A stretch of 64,000 bases of DNA, taken from sequence record OQ703618.1. One strand, 5' to 3'. Positions 1,288-62,993 of the stretch are shown one piece after another. The notes under the pieces are model-generated. The model had not been told where the DNA came from and made no database searches. It worked only from the letters and a program-made list of their open reading frames with translations. A program made the translations under genes and the position numbers. Position 1 is the stretch's first letter; every line of letters begins with the position of its first letter. This DNA comes from Escherichia phage GADS24.

Positions 1288-3501
1288 TTATTTGGCCGCT
1301 TCCACGGCCTTCATGAATTTAACGATTTGAGCGACCTGTTCTTTAGAAAGAGTACCACGTCGTCCCATGTATTCTGACACAATATGATAATTGGTTTCAA
1401 ATTCAATAACCATTTTATCATCATTATCGTAAGCATTATCTTTAAGCTTATCGAAAATTTTAGCACACAGTTCTAACTTCCTGTTCAGGTCTCTGTTATT
1501 AGCACCTGCGAATCGATTCCATCCCCAACGATTATTTACTGTTGAAAGTTTTGCAAAATCTTTACTGATTTCTTTGTTCTTAGAGCTAAAATACTTACTA
1601 AGGAAGTTAAGCTCTTCATTACGAGTAATATGGTTTAGATAGGGCTGTGCTCTACGACTTGGTGATACATACTCATCATAATCTACTTTATCGATTAGCG
1701 TAATGTAGTCATTAATTGATTTTTCGAACAAGCATTCTACTTCACCAAGTTTACGAACTTTCTTAGCAATCTGTGGGCGGACCACAGTGAACTCTTTAAT
1801 ACCTGACAAATCGGCAATACGAGTCAAGAAACCAGAATCATAGTTCAACCAACCTTTATCTGCGTCAAGACATTCAGCATTAGAACGATTACGAACTATA
1901 GCATAACCTTGGATTTCATCAGCTTCACTCGCCGGAATAAAGAGATCTTCTGATACCCAAACATCGTTTTCGTTCTTAAAGAACCGATGAGCACTTGGGG
2001 ATTTAGGACGAGGCCCATTAGAACGAGTCTTGACTTCAATCCATGGCTTAACGATTTGTAAAAGCTCTGAAGTCTTGTACATGTTAATGTTGTCGCCATC
2101 AAAGATAACTTTAAGGCGTTCCAGAAGTTTCATTGCATCTTCGTCTGTAGGGTCAACGAATAGTACGCTTTTACCAAAACCGCGTGGAACTTTACCGGTT
2201 AATTTAACCTCGTCTTTAGACATTTCAATTGAATTAAGAGCTCGCATTAATGGAACACGTCCCTTAACGTCGTCAATAACAATTTCAACGTTTTTAATGT
2301 TAATGCCAATCAGACTGTTAATTGAAATAGTTGCAGATGAGCTACCACTTTCACGAATACGACGAAGACGAGGGTCTTCAATGATATCGTATACGACGCC
2401 GAGATTACACCATTCGGGTCCCATTTTAAAACGTTTGTACAACTCAGAATAAGTTAGTTGTTCTTTAGAATATTTCAGAGATTCAATATTAGTCCCAGCC
2501 TTTTCCATGTATTTGCGAGCGGTATAGCCAAGAGAATCAATTTCACGGAACACATGACGCGGGTATTTACAATCAATCCATTTCTTAGAATCTTCAGCGA
2601 ACAATTTAGCATCGATTTCTGCAACGCGTTTATGGATATTTGCTACTGTACGTTTATCAAATGACAATGCTTCACGAGACGGGGCTACATCTAGTTCACC
2701 CATAGGGAATTTAATATAAGCTGTAGTGCATCGCGTCATCATCCATGTTTGTTCTTTAATAACACTTCCGATTGGATACACAATACCACCATAAACAGCC
2801 ATGATATTACCACGTTCACCCCATGGAGCTTCCTTGGCCAAATATACATCATCAAATTCAGGAAAGTATTTGATATCTTTAACACCACGAACTTCTGCAA
2901 TATCACCTAGAGGACGCATAACATAAGCAATTTCGGATGCGAACTTTTCAAAATCTTCTGGGTTAACAGGCACAACTACTTCAACGCCAGTCCGGTCATC
3001 AGGTCCCATCTTATCTACGAAGGTTGGCTTAATTTGTGGACCACTGTCATCTTGGTAGATTACGTAACCACGAACTTCACCATTGTGATAAGACGTAAGG
3101 TTAAACGTATCGGTATATGCTAGTGGAGCTTTAGAGCCGAGTCCGAATCCACCAATGAAATCGTTACTCGATGTTTTAGTTGAAGCAAAATATGAGTTAT
3201 AGATTCCTGGCTCTTCGTCATTACCTCGAATGGTGAAATCACTCATACCAGGACCAAAGTCTCTAACTACAAAACGTGGGTCTAAACGACCTGGAGCCTG
3301 AACAATAAACTTATCAGTGCAACCATTAAGAATTTGTCCATCGATACAGTTTGTGATTAATTCACGTACACAAGCCAATTCTTTGTTTGTATAAAGGTCA
3401 TTAGACAAAATCTTATAAACTTTGCTATTGCCTTGAATAGTAAATGCTGTGCTCTTACCGCCTGAGCCAATAATCGTTTCTTTAGCCGTTTCAATAATCA
3501 T
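1288..3501 (-). CDS. rIIA: rIIA protein (GHKL ATPase-like)
   Basis: 737 aa; T4 rIIA-like sequence and size; upstream of rIIB. Confidence 0.9.
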   Translation of the reverse strand: MIIETAKETIIGSGGKSTAFTIQGNSKVYKILSNDLYTNKELACVRELITNCIDGQILNGCTDKFIVQAPGRLDPRFVVRDFGPGMSDFTIRGNDEEPGIYNSYFASTKTSSNDFIGGFGLGSKAPLAYTDTFNLTSYHNGEVRGYVIYQDDSGPQIKPTFVDKMGPDDRTGVEVVVPVNPEDFEKFASEIAYVMRPLGDIAEVRGVKDIKYFPEFDDVYLAKEAPWGERGNIMAVYGGIVYPIGSVIKEQTWMMTRCTTAYIKFPMGELDVAPSREALSFDKRTVANIHKRVAEIDAKLFAEDSKKWIDCKYPRHVFREIDSLGYTARKYMEKAGTNIESLKYSKEQLTYSELYKRFKMGPEWCNLGVVYDIIEDPRLRRIRESGSSSATISINSLIGINIKNVEIVIDDVKGRVPLMRALNSIEMSKDEVKLTGKVPRGFGKSVLFVDPTDEDAMKLLERLKVIFDGDNINMYKTSELLQIVKPWIEVKTRSNGPRPKSPSAHRFFKNENDVWVSEDLFIPASEADEIQGYAIVRNRSNAECLDADKGWLNYDSGFLTRIADLSGIKEFTVVRPQIAKKVRKLGEVECLFEKSINDYITLIDKVDYDEYVSPSRRAQPYLNHITRNEELNFLSKYFSSKNKEISKDFAKLSTVNNRWGWNRFAGANNRDLNRKLELCAKIFDKLKDNAYDNDDKMVIEFETNYHIVSEYMGRRGTLSKEQVAQIVKFMKAVEAAK

Positions 3502-3513
3502 ATTTTTCTCTCA

Positions 3514-3714
3514 TCACAAGTTACGTTTAAAAATTTCTGCTACTTCAAGAAGTTCTTCTTTAGTAGCTGTATCGGTTTGTATTTTATATCGAATTTCTTT
3601 AAAGCGTTCTTTAAAGGACTCTGCTGACTCGATATCAAAAAATCTTTGGATAAGCCGGAATTCCCGGAGCACCGCTTTATCAAAAAGGTCCAAGTCCACG
3701 TTATATGTTCTCAT
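3514..3714 (-). CDS. small hypothetical protein (rIIA.1 position)
   Basis: 66-aa ORF immediately upstream of rIIA, synteny with T4 rIIA.1. Confidence 0.45.
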   Translation of the reverse strand: MRTYNVDLDLFDKAVLREFRLIQRFFDIESAESFKERFKEIRYKIQTDTATKEELLEVAEIFKRNL

Positions 3715-3740
3715 AATATTCTCTTCAGTAGATTCCTAGG

Positions 3741-3789
3741 GCACTATTATTAAAGACCATATAATCTATCATCTTATGTGTAATAGTGC
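3741..3789 (-). other. inverted repeat (9-bp arms gcactatta/taatagtgc) enclosing conserved GATGATAGA motif
   Basis: Seen in sequence between glycosyltransferase stop and rIIA.1 start. Confidence 0.5.
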
Positions 3790-3806
3790 CTCAGGCGATT
3801 CAGGAT

Positions 3807-4921: not shown

Positions 4922-4951
4922 AAAATTAAAATGAAGCTCCCGAAGGAGCTT
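4922..4951 (-). terminator. intrinsic terminator after topoisomerase gene
   Basis: Stem aagctcc/ggagctt with cgaa loop, T-run on minus strand. Confidence 0.55.
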
Positions 4952-6767
4952 AGGACATCCATTCTTTACGAAGTTCTGAATCATCACCCAACAACATTTC
5001 AAAGAGTTCTTTCCAGTTTTCAGGAAGTTTAACTACGTCGTACACAGGGTTCTGAATCATTTCACGATATTCTGACTTTTCAAGGGAGCCTAATCCCTTG
5101 ATGTATCGAATACTATGCTTAGGCAGTGTATCTTTAACTTCTTCATACTCAGCTACAGTATAAAACCATTTTTGAGTTTTGCCAATTTGTGCAATAATTA
5201 CAGGCGTTTTAACAAAGCGAATACGTCCTTGTTCAAACAATTCAGGCCAATTACTAAAGAAAGCAAGCAAAGCCGGATAAATACTTCCAAGGCCGTCATG
5301 ATCGGCATCGGTCATAATTGCAATATTACGATAGTTCGTATTCTCTGCCTTTTCACCAAGAATAAGACCTGTGATAGCACAGATATCAAAGAGCTCTTTG
5401 TTCTTCATCATATCAGCATATGACATACCCCAGCTATTCATCACCTTACCACGTAATGGGAATCCACCGTGTAGTTCACGGTCACGAACATCAATGAGAT
5501 AACCAATTGCCGAATCACCTTCTGTTAAGAACAATGTCGTATCTGCATCTTTACCACATTGGTTAGCTTTAATATGCTTATGAACCTTAGCTTTAGTTGC
5601 CTTTTTAGCTGCTTTAGTTTCTGCAGCCTTTTCTGCTGCCAATTTACGAGCTAATGCTGCTTCAACAATAGGCATAATCAAGGCTTCGTTTTTAAGAAGT
5701 GCCTGAGCAATTTTCTTAGCATCTAATTGGATATGATTACGAATATCACCATACGTTGACGTTAATCGTTCTTTAGTCTGAGAATCAAAACGCATGTTGC
5801 TCATGTCTCTAATAAACATCAACATTGTGAGGCATTCTTTAACACGAGCTTTAGTGACTTCAATACCCTTATATTTCTTTTTAATACCAGGCAAAAGATG
5901 TTCGCAGATATCATCCATTACACATTCAACATGATGACCACCGTTTTTAGTATGGATGTTATTCACATAAGTTAAATGACGGAAGCCGTCTGGTGATGTT
6001 GTGAATGCTATAGAGACTTTATCATTTTCTTGAATGATGTTATCTTCGCCAAATTGTTTAGCAAATCGTTTAAAATTACCATCAACCTTTTTACCATTAA
6101 ATGTGAACTTGATATCAGGATAAACGACTGCCAATGTTTGAAGTCGGTCTAAAGTAATATCTAAATAAATTTGAGATAAATTATGCTCTTCAAACGAAGA
6201 GAAATCAGGAGTGAAGATTACTTTAGTGCCTTTACCTTTAGATTTCTTAGAAGACCATGATTTGTTTTCCATTCCGTTTGAACAGTTAACAGTGATTTCA
6301 TTTTCGCCATCCGACGTGATGCCTGTAAACAACGTGGAGAAGATATTAGTTAAACTACTCCCGACGCCGTTCATACCACCAGTCTTGCGTTCAGAGTCAT
6401 CACCAAAGTTACCACCGGCCTTTGGAATAGTCCAGGCTGCTACAGGCCCAGGAATTTGTTCACCTGTTTGGTCGGTAACTAAACCTTGAGGAATACCACG
6501 TCCGTTATCTTCCACCGAAACTTGATTATTTTTAATTTGCACATCAATTTTATTTGCAAACTTAAATGATGTACGAATAGCTTCATCAACCGAGTTGTCA
6601 ATAATCTCATCGATTAATTTAACCAGACCAGGAACATATTCAACTTGTTGATATTTACCAAACAAAAAACGCTCATGGGCTTCTTTAGCAGAAGAACCAA
6701 TATACATACCACTACGTTTCTTAATATGTTCTACATCTGACAATACCTTAATTTCATTTTTAATCAT
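4950..6767 (-). CDS. 39: DNA topoisomerase II large subunit, fused gp60+gp39 (GyrB-like ATPase)
   Basis: 605 aa; GHKL ATPase and TOPRIM motifs; single uninterrupted ORF, no gene-60 bypass. Confidence 0.85.
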   Translation of the reverse strand: MIKNEIKVLSDVEHIKKRSGMYIGSSAKEAHERFLFGKYQQVEYVPGLVKLIDEIIDNSVDEAIRTSFKFANKIDVQIKNNQVSVEDNGRGIPQGLVTDQTGEQIPGPVAAWTIPKAGGNFGDDSERKTGGMNGVGSSLTNIFSTLFTGITSDGENEITVNCSNGMENKSWSSKKSKGKGTKVIFTPDFSSFEEHNLSQIYLDITLDRLQTLAVVYPDIKFTFNGKKVDGNFKRFAKQFGEDNIIQENDKVSIAFTTSPDGFRHLTYVNNIHTKNGGHHVECVMDDICEHLLPGIKKKYKGIEVTKARVKECLTMLMFIRDMSNMRFDSQTKERLTSTYGDIRNHIQLDAKKIAQALLKNEALIMPIVEAALARKLAAEKAAETKAAKKATKAKVHKHIKANQCGKDADTTLFLTEGDSAIGYLIDVRDRELHGGFPLRGKVMNSWGMSYADMMKNKELFDICAITGLILGEKAENTNYRNIAIMTDADHDGLGSIYPALLAFFSNWPELFEQGRIRFVKTPVIIAQIGKTQKWFYTVAEYEEVKDTLPKHSIRYIKGLGSLEKSEYREMIQNPVYDVVKLPENWKELFEMLLGDDSELRKEWMS

Positions 6768-6789
6768 GTTGTCTCCTCGTTATGAAGGT

Positions 6790-6814
6790 ATTCTATCATC
6801 CGAAATCTAAAGCA
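6790..6814 (-). promoter_or_regulatory. T4-type middle promoter (MotA box TTTGCTTTA, 12-bp spacer, -10 TAGAAT)
   Basis: Minus-strand motif 23 nt upstream of topoisomerase ATG; overlaps T-run of preceding terminator. Confidence 0.5.
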
Positions 6815-6831
6815 AAAAGGGCCGAAGCCCT
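6809..6831 (-). terminator. intrinsic terminator
   Basis: Stem agggc/gccct with cgaa loop plus T-run on minus strand. Confidence 0.55.
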
Positions 6832-7106
6832 TATTTAAATTTAATTTTCTGAAGTGCATCAATTGCAGCCAAACGCCCTTGTTCACTTTTAACTGTAATG
6901 ACCACATCGCCTGATACGATCACCGAACCATCAACAAATTCTATAGAGCCTTTTTTGAAATCGACCGCTGTATCTGGTTCCGGAACTTCTTCAAAGAATT
7001 TAAATTCTGCACCATAAAGCAGAATATCACCTTGCATACTATGAATAGTTCGACCATAATCACCTACGGCTTCTACAGCAATAACAGAAACGCCGTAACC
7101 AATCAT
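6831..7106 (-). CDS. hypothetical protein; N-terminus uncertain, possibly frameshifted relative to upstream 23-codon ORF (7187..7258)
   Basis: ORF track start at 7190 is a TTG; first in-frame ATG at 7106; upstream ATG ORF in another frame. Confidence 0.35.
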   Translation of the reverse strand: MIGYGVSVIAVEAVGDYGRTIHSMQGDILLYGAEFKFFEEVPEPDTAVDFKKGSIEFVDGSVIVSGDVVITVKSEQGRLAAIDALQKIKFK

Positions 7107-7260
7107 CTCTTCCACAATAAAATCTTTGGACAATAAAGTAGTATGCAGATTAGTATTAAGACGTTTACCAGTCGTATTAAGAAGTCTCAAGAAATTATCT
7201 TCTTGTCCTTTGATAATACGATATATTTCTTACCAATTTCAAAACCTTTAAAAGCCATAA

Positions 7261-12272: not shown

Positions 12273-12580
12273 CGTAAAGTCCCTGCAATCGGAATACTAA
12301 CAATACGGCCTGTGTCCAGGATTCGTTGATACAATTTTTGCGTCTCCGCATCTAGTTTAATGTGTTTCATTTCAAGCTTATTAAACCAGAACTTACGCGG
12401 AGTTTCGACCATTCTTAGAACTCCCATTTTTAAATCTGTTTTATACTGTGTTTTCAAAGTATCGAAAACTTTATCTGCAATATCCTTTCTAAAAAATACT
12501 GCAGGACGATGCTCATCAAGTGGAACCGGGACAGTAAATCCTTCCATATCTCGATAAACTATTGCATATACATAAACCAT
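12269..12580 (-). CDS. hypothetical protein (dda.1 position)
   Basis: 103-aa ORF overlapping dda start. Confidence 0.45.
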   Translation of the reverse strand: MVYVYAIVYRDMEGFTVPVPLDEHRPAVFFRKDIADKVFDTLKTQYKTDLKMGVLRMVETPRKFWFNKLEMKHIKLDAETQKLYQRILDTGRIVSIPIAGTLR

Positions 12581-12582
12581 AA

Positions 12583-13329
12583 TTAACCTTTAATCAGTTG
12601 GAATAATGATGCGCTAAGTGGTAGGCCACGTTTCAATTTTAATTTACCAATGAAACCGATCTTTTCAAAACGTTGCAGACCTTGGATAACTTTATCATAT
12701 GTATCGAAAAGCGATTCAGCGTCAGTTAATTTAGTTTTAGTTTTCCAGTCAGAGCCTTTAAGAAGAACATTGAGTTTAGTAAGTTCATGGCCTTCTGCTT
12801 GATGTGAGCCATTAATGCGTGCTTTCAAAGCAACAATTCTAAGTTTAGATTCGTTAGATAAAGGTTGATTTTTCATCATGTTCGCCATATGCTTAACACG
12901 ATTTTCACGTTTTGCTCGGATTTTTAAAATAGTACCATAAACCTTTTTAATTTGGGCCCATTTCTTCTCGTCGAGATTAAGTTTCTCTACTTTACGGGCA
13001 GAAGGATTAGCAATACGTCTTGCAACAGCGTCACGTTTCTCAATAAGTTCTTCTAATGTTAAATCAGAACGAGCCGTGTTATATTTTTTCTTAACTGGGA
13101 TAACATTACCTTTAATGTAGCCTATATCATTATTAAAACGTTCTAAGGATAATTTCTCACCTTCAACAGAGTTATTGAAAGATTCACCTGAGTAAGCGCA
13201 GACCTTTTGATCAAGAATGTTTTTAAGGTAATTAAAGTCTAAGTTAAAATCCTTAGAGCGTCTCTTCGCAGAAGCTCTAGTGTGGTCAAGACGACGATTG
13301 ATTTTGTTAATTTTATTATTTGATAACAT
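12583..13329 (-). CDS. hypothetical basic protein (possibly degenerate HNH-like or Srd-position protein)
   Basis: 248 aa; Lys/Arg rich; CAYSGESF...IGYIKGNV resembles degenerate HNH; assignment uncertain. Confidence 0.45.
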   Translation of the reverse strand: MLSNNKINKINRRLDHTRASAKRRSKDFNLDFNYLKNILDQKVCAYSGESFNNSVEGEKLSLERFNNDIGYIKGNVIPVKKKYNTARSDLTLEELIEKRDAVARRIANPSARKVEKLNLDEKKWAQIKKVYGTILKIRAKRENRVKHMANMMKNQPLSNESKLRIVALKARINGSHQAEGHELTKLNVLLKGSDWKTKTKLTDAESLFDTYDKVIQGLQRFEKIGFIGKLKLKRGLPLSASLFQLIKG

Positions 13330-13407: not shown

Positions 13408-13481
13408 TCTTTTTTCGTAAAATGCTTTAATTTTTTATGTGTTATAATGGTTCTGAGTTCCATCCGGTTATTCCAATCCAG

Positions 13482-14147: not shown

Positions 14148-14729
14148 CTAAAAATTCAACATTTTTAAATGAATGATTTTGTATAACCGAGATAAAGGGT
14201 CATATTCTAAGTCTTCAATTTCCACAATCTCAAATCTAGAGATACCTGAGACCATGTACTCTTGTTCAGATTCAATCATATCTAGGACGTCAACACGTGT
14301 TTCTTCCATAACATGCTTAGGGTTCTTTCCGGCAAGTACAATGTTAACCATGTTTTGGTAGTAATCAAAAACGAATGGAGCATTCCTGAGACTAAGAATA
14401 GTGTACGTCTGGTATTCCCAACTCCCGGAGAATTGACGAGCTGTACTGAAATCAGTTGTGAACGATGTTACTCGTCCAGGAGACCAATGGCATCCAACAG
14501 AAAGAAGTGAAAGACGTTCTACTTCTTCTGGAGTTACACCACGGTAGAGTTCTACTGGTACTGTAGAAGTCATATGCTTACGAACAAGATGGTCTAATTC
14601 ATAGTGGAAATCCGGGTCTTCCTTAGAATCGGTGCAAGCCCAGAGAATGTTTTGTTCTTGGCGGGTGAATTTGCTATCAATCAGATTTGTTAGGTATTCA
14701 CGTTCTTGAAGTTCAGATTGACATGTCAT
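14148..14729 (-). CDS. ADP-ribosyltransferase, ModA-like
   Basis: 193 aa; LYRG and acidic catalytic motif; paralog of 13482..14090. Confidence 0.55.
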   Translation of the reverse strand: MTCQSELQEREYLTNLIDSKFTRQEQNILWACTDSKEDPDFHYELDHLVRKHMTSTVPVELYRGVTPEEVERLSLLSVGCHWSPGRVTSFTTDFSTARQFSGSWEYQTYTILSLRNAPFVFDYYQNMVNIVLAGKNPKHVMEETRVDVLDMIESEQEYMVSGISRFEIVEIEDLEYDPLSRLYKIIHLKMLNF

Positions 14730-14756
14730 GATAGACCTCCATTTAAAGATAAGCCT

Positions 14757-14785
14757 ATCATAACACGAGAGGAGGGAATGTAAAC
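14757..14785 (-). promoter_or_regulatory. T4-type early promoter (-35 GTTTAC, -10 TATGAT)
   Basis: Hexamers 17 bp apart upstream of modA-like gene. Confidence 0.5.
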
Positions 14786-16275: not shown

Positions 16276-16303
16276 AAAAAAAAAGGAATCCCGAAGGATT
16301 CCT
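16276..16303 (-). terminator. intrinsic terminator downstream of soc
   Basis: 8-bp stem aggaatcc, UUCG tetraloop, then run of 9 T on minus strand. Confidence 0.75.
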
Positions 16304-16311
16304 TAAATTAT

Positions 16312-22102: not shown

Positions 22103-22109
22103 CCCGAAA

Positions 22110-22130
22110 GGAGACCGAAGTCTCCTTTTT
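22110..22130. terminator. GC hairpin (ggagac/gtctcc, cgaa loop) with T-run on plus strand
   Basis: Directly after gp41 stop; T-run lies on plus side, so may terminate antisense or act bidirectionally. Confidence 0.4.
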
Positions 22131-23583: not shown

Positions 23584-23925
23584 TTAAAAGAATTTAAATT
23601 TTTTCTTGGTCCGTTCATTAAAAGCTTGTTGTACTTGCATTGTAACACATTTTTCAACATGTGGTGCAAGTTCTGCTTTTCTGTCCTGGTCAAGAACTGC
23701 AAAGTCCATTACGATTTTACCATCAACCCAGTCTAGTTTTGTAATATAGACTATATGATGAGAACCATCTTCAAGCGTAATCAGAATCTCTTGAATGACA
23801 TTTTCCATTGCTGAACGGACGATTTTAAGAGATTCATTAAACACTCGTTCTTTGCGAATGTCTTCCCCTTCCGAAGAAGGGGATTCATCAACGATTTCTA
23901 GATTTAAATCATCGAGATTATTCAT
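23584..23925 (-). CDS. hypothetical protein at gp40 position
   Basis: Between gp41 and uvsX; synteny only. Confidence 0.45.
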   Translation of the reverse strand: MNNLDDLNLEIVDESPSSEGEDIRKERVFNESLKIVRSAMENVIQEILITLEDGSHHIVYITKLDWVDGKIVMDFAVLDQDRKAELAPHVEKCVTMQVQQAFNERTKKKFKFF

Positions 23926-25090
23926 CGAAATCTTCCATTTCGTCAAGGTCGTTTTCTATATCTGCTGCAGAAGGAGCATCAGAAGTTTTAACCGGAACTT
24001 TAGTTGTTGCTTTGCAATTAATAAGGTCATTAACAGCGTCATCAACTTCTTTAATAGAAGAGATAGCACCTAGTTTATATTTAGTTTCAATTGCATCTCG
24101 GAAAGGTTTGTGTTTAAACAATGGTCCCCAGAATTCTACACAATCAGTAGCTTTAGCACGCCATGATTTTTCTTCACGAATCATTTCACCTGTTTCTTCG
24201 TCAAGGAATTCACGAGCATACCAACCAGCTTTAGGCTTAACCACAAAACCGATTTCAGTTGCCATTTCTAACAAGCCGCTGAATGGGTCAATACCGCCAT
24301 CAAAATTAACCGTGATTGGGAAAGTAGATTTCTCTTTAACTGTACGAGATTTTTCTGCTTTCAACGTGAAGTCATAACCGGTCAATTCTGTACCTTCTTT
24401 AACCTGACGTTTAGAGATAAAGAATACAGTGTTAGCAGAGTAAAGAATACCTGTACCACCACCCATAATCTCTTTAGGATATAGACCGCCGATTTCCATT
24501 GCTGTATGGTTGATTGCAACACACGGAATATCTTTAATAGTCAGATAAGGAGTCACAATGCGGAACAGAGATTTAAGTGCCTTAGCACGAGACATATCAC
24601 CTACAACTTTCTCGTTCAACGCATCTTCGGTTTCTTTCTTAGATGCAGTATTACCGATTGAATCGATAAAGATAATAACTTTATCGCCGCGTTCAATCGC
24701 GTCAAGCTGATTAGTCATATCAACTTTAAGTTGTTCTACAGATTGAATCGGAGTATGAACTACACGGTCCAAATCAACACCCATTGAACGGAAGTAAGAT
24801 TCTGAAGCACCGAATTCTGAGTCATAAAACAAACAGATTGCATCTTTATATTTCTTCATATATGCTGCAACCATGGTCAGTCCAAACAACGTTTTAAAGT
24901 GTTTAGAAGGAGCAGCAAAAATAGTTAAGCCTGATTGCAACCCAGCATTCAGTGCACCACCTAATGCAATATTCAACATCGGAATACGAGTAGGGACTTC
25001 ATCACGATTATTAAACAGCTTAGACTTAGTCAAGTCTGCAGTCATTTTAGAAGTAGAAGCTTTAATCAGACGAGATTTTAAATCAGACAT
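23918..25090 (-). CDS. uvsX: UvsX recombinase (RecA-like)
   Basis: 390 aa; RecA-fold P-loop; T4 UvsX-like. Confidence 0.9.
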   Translation of the reverse strand: MSDLKSRLIKASTSKMTADLTKSKLFNNRDEVPTRIPMLNIALGGALNAGLQSGLTIFAAPSKHFKTLFGLTMVAAYMKKYKDAICLFYDSEFGASESYFRSMGVDLDRVVHTPIQSVEQLKVDMTNQLDAIERGDKVIIFIDSIGNTASKKETEDALNEKVVGDMSRAKALKSLFRIVTPYLTIKDIPCVAINHTAMEIGGLYPKEIMGGGTGILYSANTVFFISKRQVKEGTELTGYDFTLKAEKSRTVKEKSTFPITVNFDGGIDPFSGLLEMATEIGFVVKPKAGWYAREFLDEETGEMIREEKSWRAKATDCVEFWGPLFKHKPFRDAIETKYKLGAISSIKEVDDAVNDLINCKATTKVPVKTSDAPSAADIENDLDEMEDFDE

Positions 25091-25182
25091 TGTATTTTTC
25101 CATAGGCATCATTATATTTTACTCATGTTTAAAAGATAAGACGATTATATACTAAGGGTTATACAGCGTTTAAAACTTTAAA

Positions 25183-25200
25183 CAGGCTCTTAACGAGCCC
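25183..25200 (-). terminator. weak hairpin terminator after kinase gene
   Basis: Stem ggctc/gagcc followed by T-rich tract on minus. Confidence 0.3.
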
Positions 25201-31781: not shown

Positions 31782-34493
31782 TCAAAAATCGAACATATCG
31801 AACAGAGATGCTTTCTTCTCGTAATCGAGTTTCGCCGCTGATGTGAATCCTTCAAGTGGTTTAATAAATGTCTTCTCAAGGAGAACAGTGTAGTCCATCC
31901 AATGAAGTACGTCGTCTTTAATTAAATCTGTGATTTCAGTACCAGAAGGCCATGCGATACATTTATCACCGAATGGGTTTCCTTCACGTAAAGGCAGAAC
32001 ATATACTTTTTCACCTTCTACAACTTGCGGTGCATCGATATTACCTTTGATAGCTCTGTTATATGTCAGAATTCCACGAATATGGAACGGACATTTAGGA
32101 CCAGGGAATCCACCAACGTCATATTTAGCAATGTTATTCGCAGAAGATACCGACGCGATGCTAATATAATTCAATTGACGGAATTCTTTTTCAAACTCTT
32201 TAAAATATTCTTGTAATGATTCTTCACCTTCTTGAAGCATACGGCGAATACATTCTTTAAGAGCTTTCTGTACTGCTTTAGGGGTCGAAGATTTCTGAGT
32301 CTCTAGACCCATGATTTTGAGTTTAGGCTCAGCGTAACGAGTACCTTCCATATCCCACACGTTTAATGCATAACGTTTCTTACCAGTCCAGAATCCACCA
32401 ATACCTTTAGAACCGAGTGGAGGACCAGCGATAGCTTCTCGGTCCATGAACATTAAGTGTTGTTTATTGTTCATGTATTCACACATTTCACGGAAACCTC
32501 TATCAATAGCTGGTTCCATACGTTCACGTGCAAACTTATCTAAGAAGTCTACCCAATGGTTGGTATCACGGAATTTAGATTCACCAACCTTATCAATAAT
32601 TTTATCAGCAGATACGTAAATAGAGTCTGTATCACCATAAAGAACGAAAGCTTCACCTTCTGTGCCACAAACTTCATTCAGATATTCATTAACTTTACGT
32701 TCAATCCACTGTAAAGCCATTTGCCCGAATGTTGTGATTGCAGTAGCATTACGCAAATCATAATAACGGAACCAAACGTTGCCAAGTGCACCATAAAGTG
32801 AGTTGATAAGCAATTTACGGTTAATTTGGGCAGTCATACCTGCAACTTCAGTACGTTGAGCTCTAAACAACATTTCATTAAGAGATTTAGCAGACAACTT
32901 TTTAATCTTTTCTTTAATCTCATCACTGAAGTCGAAACGATAATCAACATCTAACGGTTCGTCAACAGAAAGATTAGGATTATGCAATGCCTCTTTAATT
33001 ATTTCACCGTTACGTTGAGCCGCAAGCATATAACCTTTATGTTCTTTACGTTGATTAAAGACTTTAGTGATTTCAGTTGGAACAACACCGTCACGGTCTT
33101 TATAATACATCATGCCGTTAGGAGAACAACTGTACACATCAGAAGGTCGTTCAGCAACAGCGTTAATATAATCATGCAATGGAGCTACTTTAAACGTTCC
33201 TGCTATTGTTTCTGGGCTAATATTCACTTGGCGAATAATACTTGGATACAGAGATGTGAGGTCGAAGCTCATCACATATTTGTATCGATTTGGAATAGGT
33301 TCCTTAACAAAAGCGCCAGGATAAGGTTGAACCGGATGAGAACGACCTTGTGGAATCACCTTGTTCTGCTCTTTAAGGCTATTAAAAATAATAGCATCCC
33401 ATGTTTTAATAGGGCTAAACACAGATTGAATCTGTATCTTAGCATAATAACCCATGTCCAAGCTCAAGTTAATGAACTGACGTTTACCATCAATTTGCAA
33501 TACACGATACACGTCGATAATGTTATAAGAAATATATCGTTGGTGATTGCTTTCACGAAGCTTAGAAATAGGGCCGTCATATTTCAGTTTACCAACGTTC
33601 AATTCAAATTCTGAAATGTAATCCAGAGAATACGACGGTTGATTAGTAAAAGAGAATTTTTTGTAAAGGTCAATGTAATCAAGAACAGAGATACCGAACA
33701 ATGTAATGATTTCACGAGAACCATACATGTTTTCGATAACTTTAACACGTGTTTTACGATGCGGTGATAAACGTTTCGCAGTAGATTCGCCAAAAATATT
33801 CTTGATTCGGTTATACACATATGGAATATCAAATGACTCAACGTTCCATCCAGTCAAAATGACAGGAGTTTTCTGTTGCCAGAAGTTGAGATATTCCATC
33901 AACAATTCTTTTTCATTATCGAACGGCATATAAACGATTTTGTCGATAATTTCGGATGGAACTTCATCACCACCTTGTTCTTGAAGCTTAGCAGCAATTT
34001 CGATAGACCATTCTTCCACATTACCATATGGAGAATTCAAAAGGTCAAATACGTAGAACCTGTCGTCAATTGAGTCATAATGGGTGATAGCATCAATTGG
34101 ATGTTTTGCTTGTGACGGCTCAGGGAACCCGTCTGGAGATGTTACTTCGATGTCGAAGTTAGCCACACGAATTTTTGTATGGTCGTATTTGATTTCATAG
34201 TTATAAGTGTCAGACAAATACGCCAATTTGAAATCGTCCATGCCAAGTGCTTCAAGTCCGATATCTTCCATGCGTTTAATCCATTGGGAGGCATCACGCA
34301 TATTGGCGAACAACTTACGAGTACACGGCTTACCGTAGATATCGAAATATTTCGTAGCCTGACTTTCCGGACAATGAGCAAACAGTGATGGTTTATATTC
34401 TACTTCACGAGTACGTTCACGGCCATTAGAATCGATGTAACGTTCAAAAATTGAATCACCAATCTGTTCAACCGTTAAGTAAAATTCTTTCAT
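31782..34493 (-). CDS. 43: DNA polymerase gp43 (family B, RB69-type, 903 aa)
   Basis: Exo motifs FDIEV, YGDTDS polymerase motif; recognised as RB69-like gp43. Confidence 0.95.
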   Translation of the reverse strand: MKEFYLTVEQIGDSIFERYIDSNGRERTREVEYKPSLFAHCPESQATKYFDIYGKPCTRKLFANMRDASQWIKRMEDIGLEALGMDDFKLAYLSDTYNYEIKYDHTKIRVANFDIEVTSPDGFPEPSQAKHPIDAITHYDSIDDRFYVFDLLNSPYGNVEEWSIEIAAKLQEQGGDEVPSEIIDKIVYMPFDNEKELLMEYLNFWQQKTPVILTGWNVESFDIPYVYNRIKNIFGESTAKRLSPHRKTRVKVIENMYGSREIITLFGISVLDYIDLYKKFSFTNQPSYSLDYISEFELNVGKLKYDGPISKLRESNHQRYISYNIIDVYRVLQIDGKRQFINLSLDMGYYAKIQIQSVFSPIKTWDAIIFNSLKEQNKVIPQGRSHPVQPYPGAFVKEPIPNRYKYVMSFDLTSLYPSIIRQVNISPETIAGTFKVAPLHDYINAVAERPSDVYSCSPNGMMYYKDRDGVVPTEITKVFNQRKEHKGYMLAAQRNGEIIKEALHNPNLSVDEPLDVDYRFDFSDEIKEKIKKLSAKSLNEMLFRAQRTEVAGMTAQINRKLLINSLYGALGNVWFRYYDLRNATAITTFGQMALQWIERKVNEYLNEVCGTEGEAFVLYGDTDSIYVSADKIIDKVGESKFRDTNHWVDFLDKFARERMEPAIDRGFREMCEYMNNKQHLMFMDREAIAGPPLGSKGIGGFWTGKKRYALNVWDMEGTRYAEPKLKIMGLETQKSSTPKAVQKALKECIRRMLQEGEESLQEYFKEFEKEFRQLNYISIASVSSANNIAKYDVGGFPGPKCPFHIRGILTYNRAIKGNIDAPQVVEGEKVYVLPLREGNPFGDKCIAWPSGTEITDLIKDDVLHWMDYTVLLEKTFIKPLEGFTSAAKLDYEKKASLFDMFDF

Positions 34494-34562
34494 TTAATTT
34501 CCTTTAGACGAGTTATTGTCTTTTGTTTGTTGATGAACTTATTATACTCCAAATGGGACCGA
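34494..34562 (-). promoter_or_regulatory. gp43 5' leader: putative translational operator (AATAACTCG...AAGGAA) and upstream GC hairpin
   Basis: Leader resembles T4 gene 43 operator; hairpin atgggac/gtcccat with cgaa loop at 34545..34562. Confidence 0.4.
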
Positions 34563-34574
34563 AGTCCCATTGCT

Positions 34575-34943
34575 TTAATTACCAATTGTATATTTTGCTT
34601 TCAAAGTCCAGTCATCTTTCTGTTTAAAAGAGATAACACGGAAGTTATTAGTCAGGCCAAACAGATCTTCACGAGCAGAGTCTTCAATAACAATCAATCC
34701 CCAGTCTTCAAGCAACTGAGCAATCGAATCACGTCGCTGATAGTCTTCACCATCAATATCAACCTGACGTCCGTCCATACGCAGCATTTCTTTAAAGTGG
34801 ACGATATAGTACTTACCTTGCTTTTGGAGGATATGACAAGACTGGTAAAGGACTTTATCCTTGTTATTAGCGATGCCCATACGGGTCAAAGTCTCTTTGA
34901 CTTTCAGAAAATCTTCAGGGTTCTTCAATTTAATTTCAATCAT
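34575..34943 (-). CDS. regA: translational repressor RegA
   Basis: Near-identical blocks to T4 RegA (KVKETLTRMGIANNKDKVLYQSCHIL). Confidence 0.85.
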   Translation of the reverse strand: MIEIKLKNPEDFLKVKETLTRMGIANNKDKVLYQSCHILQKQGKYYIVHFKEMLRMDGRQVDIDGEDYQRRDSIAQLLEDWGLIVIEDSAREDLFGLTNNFRVISFKQKDDWTLKAKYTIGN

Positions 34944-34945
34944 TT

Positions 34946-35509
34946 TTACCATTCCAATGCTAATTTTTTAAATTGTTTTTGTTCTTTCACATTTTTTGTA
35001 ACTTCTTTGAGAAACTCATCAGTGACCATGGCCTTCAGTTCTTTAAGGACTATTGGCAACTTGTTATTTTTTTCAAGGAGCCGCTTATACTCAGTAGCAT
35101 CATTCATGTTGATTGTGTAACGTTTCATCAACAGTTTGATAACTAGTAACTCTGAAGTGTCTTCGACTAGTTTAGCCCATTTAGAGAATCGACGACCATG
35201 CGGAATTGCCGCCATCATATAGTTGAAGTGCGCTTCATCACTTAATTCAGAACCGACTAAGTTCATCATGTAAACAGCTGGCATACATTCTGGGAACTGG
35301 GATAATGAGTTCTCAACCATAAATTTTGAGTAGTCGACCTGAGCAATTGACATAGGTTTCTTTTCATTAATAGCATTAATGATTTTAAAGAATTCATTCT
35401 CAGGTTTTTCTTTAAACATATCAGCACATTTTTGAATCGCATCAGCGTCATTAGACTTCCATGCAATTTGGTGCTCGTTAAGCCGGACGTCATCATCGAA
35501 TAAGTTCAT
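34946..35509 (-). CDS. 62: clamp loader small subunit gp62
   Basis: 187 aa; T4 gp62-like. Confidence 0.85.
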
Positions 35510-39889: not shown

Positions 39890-40118
39890 TACACGCTTCA
39901 GCCATTTTAAGAATAGAGCCAGGAGTATCGTTGTCCATTATATTAAAGCTAAATTCAATAGCCCAGTCAGTGCAGACATGAACTGCTTTAACTTCATTGC
40001 CTTCAACGCGTAATGGCTCAATCCAATACTTGATAGTGTTCTCGAATCCATCATCATCTTTAACGTCCATTTCAACTTCAAGCCTGAGTCCAGCATTGTT
40101 AAATTCATCTAAAGTCAT
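39861..40118 (-). CDS. hypothetical protein
   Basis: 85-aa ORF. Confidence 0.45.
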   Translation of the reverse strand: MTLDEFNNAGLRLEVEMDVKDDDGFENTIKYWIEPLRVEGNEVKAVHVCTDWAIEFSFNIMDNDTPGSILKMAEACIEDAYNDED

Positions 40119-41134
40119 TGTGTTGCCTCAACATAAAGTTCGTTGGAATATTTGACCAGCGCTTCTCTGTCTTCATCTGAGATATCTGGAATCGCGTCAA
40201 TATATTCTTTAATGATATCTTGAAGTGATTTAATCTCGATTTCCTGGTCGTCATCAGATTCAACACTGTTATCAACTTTAGAAACCATACGAAGAGAGTG
40301 AACTACTTTTTCAAGTTCAGATTCAAACTTAGTCAACTCTGAATCAATTTCTGATACTATAACACGTACGGCTAGATTAGTATAATCAGAATAATTGATT
40401 TTGCCTTTAAACGGATAAGTGATTCGTCGGTGCCATGTTGTTTCATTAGGAATAAATTCCATACGTTCAACATCAGTGTCAAATACCCAGAATCCTCGAG
40501 GGTCGTTCTCATCACCTGCAGTAAGGGTCCATGGTGTCCCAATATATTTGACGTTAGCAGCTTCAGAGATTGTGTGGAAGTGGCCAGAACAGACTTGTTT
40601 ATAGGTCTTTAAGAAATCAGGTTCAAGCCCATGAGACTTCATTCCTTTATAGAAATAAAAGCCATTCAGTTCCCAGTGCCCAACACAATACTCTGCGGAA
40701 GAAGTCTTGATGTGCTCTAAGATTTCACCTGTATTTTCTTCACACATCCATGGAACGATATCAATCAGACATCCATCAAAATCTACAGTAGTTGGATGCT
40801 CATAAATAGTAAAGTTTTCAAATTGAGTTAACAATTCAGAAACAGTGTTAGGTGTTATTGTATTCTTAAACGCCATGTCATGGTTTCCTACCGTGACATG
40901 AACGTGAATGCCTGCTTTAGAAATCATATCAACGATTTCACGATTGAATTCCATCGTACGATGTGTTATTGCTTTACGGACGTCAAACCAATCACCGCAC
41001 TGAATCCAAGTTTTAATCCCATGTTTCTTAGAGTATTCAATTGCTTGACGAATACCATCACGTTGAATGTCTTGAACCCATGGGTCGTCTTGTTTGACTC
41101 CGATATGGAAGTCGCCTAAGTACAAAATTTTCAT
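40115..41134 (-). CDS. 47: recombination endonuclease subunit gp47 (Mre11/SbcD-like)
   Basis: 339 aa; phosphoesterase motifs GDFH, GNHD. Confidence 0.85.
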   Translation of the reverse strand: MKILYLGDFHIGVKQDDPWVQDIQRDGIRQAIEYSKKHGIKTWIQCGDWFDVRKAITHRTMEFNREIVDMISKAGIHVHVTVGNHDMAFKNTITPNTVSELLTQFENFTIYEHPTTVDFDGCLIDIVPWMCEENTGEILEHIKTSSAEYCVGHWELNGFYFYKGMKSHGLEPDFLKTYKQVCSGHFHTISEAANVKYIGTPWTLTAGDENDPRGFWVFDTDVERMEFIPNETTWHRRITYPFKGKINYSDYTNLAVRVIVSEIDSELTKFESELEKVVHSLRMVSKVDNSVESDDDQEIEIKSLQDIIKEYIDAIPDISDEDREALVKYSNELYVEATQ

Positions 41135-41157
41135 ATTATTTCCTCATTAGTTAATTC

Positions 41158-41181
41158 ATTCTATCATCCGTTTATAAAGCA
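41158..41181 (-). promoter_or_regulatory. T4-type middle promoter (MotA box TTTGCTTTA, 11-bp spacer, -10 TAGAAT)
   Basis: Same GATGATAGAAT-containing architecture as 6790..6814; 24 nt upstream of gp47 ATG. Confidence 0.5.
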
Positions 41182-41206
41182 AAAAAGGAACTCCGAAGAG
41201 TTCCTA
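41175..41206 (-). terminator. intrinsic terminator
   Basis: Stem aggaactc/gagttcct, cgaa loop, T-run on minus. Confidence 0.55.
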
Positions 41207-41377
41207 TCCACATAGTACACCGTACAGAGGCTCATTTGAACTTTTAAATCGAATGGGCTTGTATGTAATAGTTCCTTCGGCTTTAGCTTTATCATAAGAC
41301 TCTTTAAAACGTCTCATTCTTTCTGCTTTGCCTTTACGGATTTTATCGAAATTTTCAGAAGTCGGGATGTTCGTCAT
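41204..41377 (-). CDS. small hypothetical protein (57 aa)
   Basis: Hand-translated; occupies T4 alpha-gt slot between 47 and 55. Confidence 0.3.
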   Translation of the reverse strand: MTNIPTSENFDKIRKGKAERMRRFKESYDKAKAEGTITYKPIRFKSSNEPLYGVLCG

Positions 41378-53838: not shown

Positions 53839-53900
53839 AACTATTTCCTCAGATTGAATTGGAACTCAGAACCATTATAACCCGTCCTTGGGTAAAGCGT

Positions 53901-56261: not shown

Positions 56262-56284
56262 CCCTAAAGGGACCCGAAGGTCCC
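56262..56284 (-). terminator. GC hairpin, weak terminator
   Basis: Stem gggacc/ggtccc, UUCG loop on minus, short T-run. Confidence 0.35.
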
Positions 56285-56289
56285 CATAT

Positions 56290-62534: not shown

Positions 62535-62993
62535 CTAGATTTTAATCACTGCTTTAGAAGCTTTTCCTGGTAGTCGTTTACTGTTAATAATAGCCATTCT
62601 GCATTGAAGAGTCTTCATTTTGAATGCTGGATTTTCGCGACAAACTGTAAGTCCTAACCAAAGATTTCCGTCAGTTATTTCTAAACGGCCTGGGCGATAT
62701 TCGACACCTTCGACAAAATCTTCATCAACATCTGGACGTGCCGGCATTGATAAAAATTCTGCAACTTCTTTAACATGATTTTTTACTTTACGAAATAATT
62801 CAAAAACGTAATTCTCGTCTATTTCTCTCTGGATGGCACGATCTAAGAGATGTTGAGAATACTTGATATGAAAGCCTGGTAGTCCAAGAGACTTTGCAGC
62901 ATCTTTTATACCGGCATTTATTTTGCGGAACTCCGTTTCAAAGATTCGACGGAGTTTATTACGGCGGATAAAAACGTCTGAATTGATAGTCAT
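62535..62993 (-). CDS. regB: RegB site-specific endoribonuclease
   Basis: 152 aa; long identical blocks to T4 RegB. Confidence 0.85.
   Translation of the reverse strand: MTINSDVFIRRNKLRRIFETEFRKINAGIKDAAKSLGLPGFHIKYSQHLLDRAIQREIDENYVFELFRKVKNHVKEVAEFLSMPARPDVDEDFVEGVEYRPGRLEITDGNLWLGLTVCRENPAFKMKTLQCRMAIINSKRLPGKASKAVIKI

Follow-up and report, generated by a model that had tools for sequence, protein, structure and literature searches.

Directly upstream of gene 39 and of genes 47.1/47, phage T4 carries the middle promoters P39 (start 5349) and P47 (start 36576), both listed in Table 1 of Hinton (2010, PMC2988021). For RB69, the published predictions include a middle promoter Pm:5538 (5498-5538) with a TransTerm terminator at 5535-5546, labelled '60plus39<--RB69ORF005c', and a middle promoter Pm:40046 (40007-40046) with a terminator at 40044-40061, labelled '47<--a-gt.2'; both terminators have a TransTerm score of 100 (Nolan et al. 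2006, PMC1524935). The same study reported a motA orthologue in RB69 and extra conservation at -13 to -16 in its middle promoters, and the genome encodes asiA (159866-160138) and motA (162001-162633). The composite of a stem-loop and a Mot-box promoter was named PmSL, for Vibrio phage nt-1; its promoter has a TGCTT Mot box and a -10 element (Comeau 2014, PMC4122927). Here we analyse two sites in a 64,000-nucleotide stretch of Escherichia phage GADS24 (record OQ703618.1; this whole stretch is called the window), site 1 in front of gp39 and site 2 in front of gp47. We propose that both are very probably intrinsic terminators that close early transcription units and are fused to MotA-dependent middle promoters.

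The window is part of a Mosigvirus genome: a 2-kb query around site 1 was 98% identical to many Escherichia and Shigella Mosigvirus (RB69 group) genomes. The minus strand carries its early and middle genes, in the gene order of RB69 and PhAPEC2: rIIB, rIIA, rIIA.1, ORF003c, gp39 (fused 39+60), ORF005c, goF and cef, all minus. Pfam searches identified a GyrB-type topoisomerase subunit downstream of site 1 and a calcineurin-like (Mre11/SbcD-type) phosphoesterase, gp47, downstream of site 2. Intergenic regions of only 63 nt (site 1) and 69 nt (site 2) contain a stem-loop, a promoter, a Shine-Dalgarno (SD) sequence and the ATG.

Read along the minus strand, site 1 begins with the TAA stop codon of ORF005c and continues as AAGGGC-TTCG-GCCCTT, TTTGCTTTA, GATTTCGGATGA, TAGAAT, ACCTTCATAACGAGGAGACAAC and the gp39 ATG; the leader between TAGAAT and this ATG is 16 nt long and includes GAGGAG. 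Site 2 begins with the TAG stop codon of a-gt.2 and continues as AGGAACTC-TTCG-GAGTTCCT, TTTTTGCTTTA, TAAACGGATGA, TAGAAT, GAATTAACTAATGAGGAAATAAT and the gp47 ATG, with GAGGA in the corresponding leader. A preliminary description of this DNA had given the order hairpin, MotA box, spacer and TAGAAT at both places; we found the same order, with coordinates correct to within 1 base (hairpin 1 begins at 6832), and the spacers that it put at 11-12 bp measured 12 bp at site 1 and 11 bp at site 2. It had also called the sites nearly superimposable, which holds for the overall architecture and for the promoter half: they have in common TTTTTGCTTTA and an identical 13-mer, CGGATGATAGAAT, that occurs exactly twice in the window, once at each site. 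It does not hold for the stems, whose sequences differ; only the TTCG loop is common to both.

Both sites have clear counterparts in T4. The sequence upstream of T4 gene 39 contains TAAAAGGCCTTCGGGCCTTTAGCTTTATGATTACCGGAGTATAAT and that upstream of 47.1/47 contains TAAAGGGCTTCGGCCCTTTAGCTTTATACGGAGTTTGATATAAT; the P39 region reads AAGGCCTTCGGGCCTT-TAGCTTTA-12 bp-TATAAT and the P47 region AAGGGCTTCGGCCCTT-TAGCTTTA-12 bp-TATAAT. As in the window, a stop codon is followed by a CUUCGG hairpin, the box, a 12-bp spacer and the -10 element, and by our own coordinate arithmetic the starts at 5349 and 36576 both lie 7 nt past TATAAT. Judged by sequence and gene position, sites 1 and 2 are the Mosigvirus positional orthologues of T4 P39 and P47.

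This arrangement is widely conserved. Mosigvirus records at least 99% identical numbered 137 for site 1 and 94 for site 2. Tequatro-, Mosig-, Dhaka-, Gapriver-, Winkler- and Kagamiyamavirus and a Klebsiella phage all have the composite before gp47 or 47.1, and five genera have it before gp39. We read JS98 for Dhakavirus, VR26 for Gaprivervirus, CHI14 for Winklervirus and EcS1 for Kagamiyamavirus; in all four, and in Klebsiella phage Mexia, the T-run of the hairpin enters a TGCT(T/A)T box that is followed after 11-12 bp by a -10 element before gp47/47.1, and the same layout stands before gp39 in JS98, CHI14 and EcS1. At the orthologous sites of eight phages we found at least five different stems, all of them fully paired (GGCC/GGCC, GGGC/GCCC, GGAACTC/GAGTTCC, GGAGC/GCTCC, GGAAGC/GCTTCC and GGGCC/GGCCC). 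Because the stems vary and yet are always paired, the compensatory changes point to selection for RNA structure. Conservation has limits: STP4-a is an exception, with boxes and no hairpins at both positions; nothing of the kind lies upstream of gp47 in Proteus phage Pm5461; and more distant phages have a hairpin with an early-type promoter, or no signal. An IMG/VR scan with gp47 gave 16 loci only, mostly from phages without a MotA-type box.

The sequence signals themselves are unlikely to be accidental. At both sites the MotA box, TTTTGCTTTA, matches (a/t)(a/t)(a/t)TGCTT(t/c)A at 10 of 10 positions and stands at the distance of a middle promoter, 12 +/- 1 bp from the sigma-70 -10 element TAnnnT. 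The combined pattern WWWTGCTTYA-N11-13-TANNNT has three minus-strand occurrences where 0.19 are expected (~16-fold enrichment), a number that none of 200 dinucleotide-preserving shuffles reached. A scan for -35/-10 sigma-70 promoters listed neither site, and inspection by eye gave at best hexamers with 2 of 6 matches to TTGACA; we therefore rejected a plain -35/-10 promoter at either place. On the plus strand, the shorter pattern TGCTTYA-N11-13-TANNNT occurs seven times against 1.0 expected, yet few middle promoters are predicted there, and this count does not separate an effect of codons or composition from real sites.

The hairpins, folded as isolated stems, were both terminator-like in a consensus scan. 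Directly after the stems come the U-rich tracts UUUUUGCUUUA and UUUUUUGCUUUA, with five or six consecutive U. With Rfam, a scan of the whole window returned no known RNA family at any site. Hairpins with a UUCG loop lie on the transcribed minus strand in nine cases out of nine in the window, and several are followed by early-type, not middle, promoters (16283-16304, 22107-22128, 56268-56285). We combined three supplementary tables of Nolan et al. for the part of RB69 that the window covers and, by our own count, 9 of the 14 predicted terminators have a predicted promoter within ~80 nt after them (six early, three middle), which makes a terminator followed by a promoter the normal punctuation of this region.

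Taken as terminator and middle promoter, the two sites would work as follows. Host RNA polymerase that had started at early promoters farther upstream would, early in infection, read cef, goF, ORF006 and ORF005c on its way to site 1, and gene 55 through a-gt.2 on its way to site 2; in RB69 the nearest predicted early promoter is Pe:6863 for the first site and Pe:42515 for the second (Nolan et al. 2006, PMC1524935). On reaching the C(UUCG)G hairpin and its five or six U, most complexes would terminate. Once AsiA and MotA accumulate, sigma appropriation (mechanism per Hinton 2010, PMC2988021) would take place at the box and the extended -10 (TGn) element: MotA would bind the TTTTGCTTTA box, centred at about -30, and sigma regions 2 and 3 would bind TG-A-TAGAAT. 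Transcription would then restart ~7 nt downstream of TAGAAT and give mRNAs with short leaders for gp39 and gp47. The T-run would serve twice: in RNA it would be the terminator's U-tract, in DNA the A/T-rich flank on the 5' side of the MotA box. This would be why the two signals abut.

This proposal is carried by the anatomy, the non-random occurrence, the orthology to mapped T4 promoters and the conservation with compensatory stems. We infer termination efficiency and MotA dependence in GADS24 by analogy, and likewise, from T4, the coupling of termination to MotA-dependent re-initiation. That a terminator and a MotA middle promoter precede gp39 and gp47, as the preliminary description had it, was supported by the gene identities, the T4 layout and starts, the RB69 predictions and the motA and asiA genes that RB69 carries.

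Several points weigh against it. The motA and asiA genes lie outside the window, and their presence is deduced from relatives. Interruptions in the U-tracts (UUUUUGCUUUA) may make termination partial, and at the orthologous T4 sites the tract is no more than UUUAGCUUUA. In T4, middle genes are reached as well by early transcripts that are extended (Hinton 2010, PMC2988021), which would mean that these terminators leak. The short T4 tracts and the extended early transcripts also favour a different role for the hairpins, mainly as 3'-end stabilisers or processing barriers of the upstream early mRNAs and not as efficient terminators, as does a similar hairpin in the window (34552-34571) that entirely lacks a U-tract. 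Hairpins of the C(UUCG)G type are reportedly exceptionally stable and recurrent in T4 intercistronic regions (Tuerk et al. 1988); both window hairpins share the C-UUCG-G loop, and we found no difference that would set them apart from ordinary members of that group. Against this role stand the five or six consecutive U after the window hairpins and the TransTerm score at both RB69 sites. We consider it unlikely as the main function, and the two roles are not mutually exclusive.

The promoter half raises a similar question, since TGn promoters can be partly MotA-independent. TG-A-TAGAAT at both sites is an extended -10 element, and TGn/-10 promoters such as T4 PrIIB2 are immune to AsiA (Hinton 2010, PMC2988021), so the sites could be plain extended -10 sigma-70 promoters, active without MotA, in which the TGCTTTA box is incidental. 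We regard this as very improbable. The box is exact and exactly spaced at both sites and is kept across genera at either position; published lists of T4 middle promoters give the two orthologues as MotA-dependent; and on DNA with glucosylated hydroxymethylcytosine there is little MotA-independent activity of middle promoters (Hinton 2010, PMC2988021).

The TGn element also accounts for much of what the sites have in common. With the RB69 list we placed eleven middle promoters in the window. Four have TATAAT, in no case with TGn before it; the other seven have TAGAAT, TAAAAT or TAAATT, and in five of these TGn stands before the hexamer (Fisher p ~0.05, our own calculation); about half of T4 middle promoters have TGn (Hinton 2010, PMC2988021). 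Most of the shared GATGA is explained by this pairing of TGn with non-TATAAT hexamers. The preliminary description had singled out a conserved GATGATAGAAT: it is indeed common to both sites, but most of it is TGn compensating for a weaker hexamer. A candidate contact of 'CGGA' with polymerase at a fixed position was rejected, as its position relative to the -10 element shifts (-16 and -21 in T4, -18 in the window).

The same description had reported a third copy of GATGATAGA in an inverted repeat. The copy exists, between ORF003c and rIIA.1 (Table 1), and does not belong with the promoters. The repeat has 10-bp arms (3740-3749, 3781-3790), a 31-nt loop and a fold z-score of -5.6; there is no MotA box 11-13 bp upstream of the site and no T-run or U-tract after the stem, and the RB69 lists of predicted early and middle promoters (Nolan et al.) have none at this position. 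We found the repeat with the third copy in Mosigvirus only, in 154 records that are all at least 93% identical; in RB69 its stem has an A-C mismatch, and PhAPEC2 alters the 9-mer itself. One extra 9-mer beyond the two promoter copies is close to chance (0.61 expected). With no box, no U-tract, variation in RB69 and PhAPEC2 and a count at chance level, we rejected it as a member of the set, and it looks unrelated to the composites. The repeat also contains TG-A-TAGATT, a possible extended -10 element.

Table 1. Positions of the two composite sites, their flanking genes and the repeat with the third 9-mer copy in the window.
Feature	Position	Strand	Remarks
ORF005c stop codon TAA	6831..6833	-	overlaps first two hairpin bases
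Site 1 putative terminator hairpin AAGGGC-UUCG-GCCCUU, C(UUCG)G tetraloop, 6-bp stem	6817..6832	-	-8.8 kcal/mol
Site 1 T-run (6814-6818) and MotA box TTTTGCTTTA (6808-6817)	6808..6818	-	direct sequence reading
Site 1 spacer GATTTCGGATGA, 12 bp; final TGA = TGn extended -10	6796..6807	-	
Site 1 sigma-70 -10 hexamer TAGAAT	6790..6795	-	predicted start ~6783, 7 nt downstream as at T4 P39
GGATGATAGAA, site 1 copy; exact match to GGA(G/U)RAYARAA (RegB/S1 consensus)	6791..6801	-	only on hairpin read-through RNA
a-gt.2 stop codon TAG	41204..41206	-	overlaps hairpin start
Site 2 putative terminator hairpin AGGAACUC-UUCG-GAGUUCCU, 8-bp stem	41186..41205	-	-11.2 kcal/mol
Site 2 T-run (41181-41186) merging into MotA box TTTTGCTTTA (41175-41184)	41175..41186	-	sequence
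Site 2 spacer TAAACGGATGA, 11 bp; TGn element at its end	41164..41174	-	
Site 2 -10 hexamer TAGAAT	41158..41163	-	predicted start ~41151
GGATGATAGAA, second exact copy (RegB/S1 consensus match)	41159..41169	-	
gp39 (fused 39+60), DNA topoisomerase II large subunit	4950..6767	-	SD GAGGAG at 6773-6778
gp47, recombination endonuclease subunit (Mre11/SbcD-like)	40115..41134	-	SD GAGGA at 41141-41145
RB69 ORF005c orthologue, early gene upstream of site 1	6831..7190	-	annotation of relatives
a-gt.2 orthologue upstream of site 2	41204..41377	-	DUF5486
Inverted repeat with third GATGATAGA copy (3765-3773), between ORF003c and rIIA.1	3740..3790	-	outside promoter/terminator set

The identical 13-mer may have a second meaning in RNA. 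A strong site for the nuclease RegB reads GG*AGRAYARAA, and the enzyme cleaves GGAG/U within the intergenic parts of early RNAs (Uzan and Miller 2010, PMC3014915). GGATGATAGAA matches the RegB/S1 consensus at both sites, with U at position 4, so that CGGATGATAGAAT could encode TGn and the -10 element on DNA and a RegB/S1 site (GG*AUGAUAGAA) on read-through RNA. Early RNA that leaked past the hairpin would then be cut between the hairpin and the ribosome-binding site of gp39 or gp47, and MotA-initiated RNA, which starts downstream, would escape. Such dual coding would complement the terminator-promoter explanation, not replace it; we regard it as possible, with the odds somewhat against it.

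Within the window, GGAKRAYARAA occurs eight times against 1.14 expected, and none of 100 shuffles reached eight. Seven of the eight are on the minus strand, five of these in early-gene leaders and the other two at sites 1 and 2. RegB itself is encoded in the window (62535..62993, minus, PF10715, E = 9e-69), and on read-through RNA the motif is predicted to be largely single-stranded (mean P(unpaired) 0.60 and 0.69). Other phages are partly in line with this: P47 of JS98 and of VR26 carries GGATGATAAAA, an exact consensus match, and P47 of CHI14 matches at 10 of 11 positions, but T4 P47 (GGAGTTTGATA) fits the consensus poorly. RegB processing has been reported to stimulate synthesis of T4 gp43. 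For 17 mapped T4 middle promoters, of roughly 60, we found GGA[GT] in the spacer of three of the four that are hairpin-linked (P39, P43, P47) and in none of the 13 others (Fisher p ~0.006, our own calculation). This comparison was made post hoc on small counts, and the three hairpin-linked promoters, being orthologues from one phage to another, are not independent. Moreover, eight of the 11 positions of the motif are fixed by TG-A-TA(G/A)AA anyway, which leaves GGA at -18 to -16 as the sole addition; at position 4 the sites have U where the consensus has G; and many intergenic GGAG/U sites are left uncut (Uzan and Miller 2010, PMC3014915). As a side observation, exact GGA(G/T)RAYARAA stands in five early-gene leaders (21613, 43592, 55893, 56181, 58890), in four of them as the Shine-Dalgarno sequence (GGAGAAYAAAATG).

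If RegB does cut here, the sites would be a compact case of one sequence with two readings, as a promoter in DNA and as a nuclease site in RNA, and there would be a testable reason for the weaker TAGAAT or TAAAAT with GGATGA in front at some middle promoters. This possible overlap is the sole part of our analysis that a specialist might test.

The composites might also persist partly as short homologous module boundaries that allow recombination and spare the regulation of neighbouring genes, in the sense in which PeSL and PmSL have been described as linkers (Arbiol 2010, PMC2839356; Comeau 2014, PMC4122927). We compared T4 (locus 14655-14775 and 12550-12670) with the window (41125-41245). In T4 the order is a-gt.2, a hairpin with PmobB, mobB, a-gt, a hairpin with P47, and 47.1; PmobB (start 38682) is a hairpin-box composite directly after a-gt.2, and P47 comes after a-gt. 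A single composite stands between a-gt.2 and 47(.1) in the window, JS98 and VR26. Its left half (the end of a-gt.2, the stem type and TTGCTTTATA) matches T4 PmobB, the JS98 stem being the PmobB stem, and its right half (CGGA..TGATA.AATGA) matches T4 P47. This single hybrid composite suggests that the mobB/a-gt module was gained or lost by exchange between composites, in what is one case without a control.

The gp39 junction is variable too. The gene upstream of the P39 hairpin is 39.1 in T4, JS98 and CHI14 and ORF005c in Mosigvirus, and homing-endonuclease genes sit exactly at the 39.1/gp39 junction, the position of the P39 composite, in VR26 (locus 1815-2580) and Mexia (locus 2461-3153); these cases are few and lack a control. 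On the other side, both sites flank essential core genes and not hyperplastic regions, the common homology is only ~20-30 bp, and the similarity of P39 and P47 within genomes is only marginally above that across genomes (0.73 vs 0.68, five non-independent genomes). We hold a linker function to be a tentative and rather doubtful addition. The signal for concerted evolution of P39 and P47 within genomes was weak, as 4 of 120 permutations reached the observed value with five related genomes, and we did not rely on it. A broader proposal, in which the 13-mer is conserved beyond promoter function and the sites combine a three-level switch (termination, RNA cutting and re-initiation downstream) with module boundaries for recombination, seems to us possible but less likely than not. 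At the Mexia gp39 junction we also observed that the hairpin is retained and followed by an early-type promoter, GTTTAC-17-TATAAT.

Beyond sites 1 and 2, the window holds other promoter-like sequences. A third hairpin-linked middle promoter with another geometry lies at 34541-34571 (minus), between regA (34575..34952) and gene 43 (31782..34493): the hairpin AATGGGAC-TTCG-GTCCCATT covers -30 (ACTTCG; GCTTCG in T4), TGGAG and TATAAT follow, and there is no U-tract. Upstream of uvsX (23918..25090), at 25144-25199 (minus), a hairpin GGCTC-GTTAA-GAGCC overlaps the stop codon of the upstream open reading frame; TATAAT follows ~35 nt past the hairpin, with a degenerate box, AAACGCTGTA, and the site corresponds to RB69 Pm:24034 and the terminator 24042-24056. 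An identical 20-mer, TATAATGGTTCTGAGTTCCA, is present at 13443-13462 (plus) and 53860-53879 (minus), where none is expected by chance; at two promoter-like sites that bear a box, it covers the -10 element together with the first bases to be transcribed. The plus-strand copy runs antisense to the early genes and matches RB69 Pm:12081(+). Likely orthologues of T4 PrIIA and PrIIB are found, both on the minus strand, at 3581-3606 inside rIIA.1 (CGCTTTA-13-TAAAAT) and at ~1412-1440 (ATAATGCTTAC-11-TAAAAT, with GATGA before the -10 element).

Compared with the systems described before, the two composites hold few surprises. They differ from T4 P39 and P47 in detail: T4 has a variant box, TTTAGCTTTA, the consensus TATAAT and, at P39, no TGn, whereas the window has TGCTTTA, a weaker TAGAAT with TGn and a longer U-run; the genes upstream are 39.1 and a-gt in T4, and ORF005c and a-gt.2 in the window. 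T4 P43 (between regA and 43, start 29933), whose orthologue is the site at 34541-34571, is likewise hairpin-linked, with a spacer GGAG that abuts the -10 element in both phages, and its RegB-dependent processing has been linked to gp43 synthesis; there the hairpin covers -30, whereas at P39 and P47 the box follows the hairpin. In RB69, the type phage of the same genus, both elements are the same and site 1 is identical to the window base for base. The RB69 promoters and terminators were published as separate lists, and we found no comment there on the fusion, the 13-mer or the match to the RegB consensus. A literature search for genome-wide maps of T4 start sites or terminators yielded nothing usable.

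The PeSL and PmSL elements are alike in having a stem-loop terminator directly upstream of a promoter, an SD sequence and an ATG within a short intergenic region (Arbiol 2010, PMC2839356; Comeau 2014, PMC4122927). The PmSLs of nt-1 are mostly in hyperplastic regions, whereas the window composites precede conserved core replication and recombination genes. With T4 P39 and P47, the RB69 predictions and the PmSL class, the elements are already known, and our finding is a rediscovery; it aids annotation and phage engineering and leaves understanding unchanged. The comparison confirms that T4-style prereplicative punctuation, probably an early terminator fused to a MotA-dependent promoter for replication and recombination genes, is conserved base for base in Mosigviruses.

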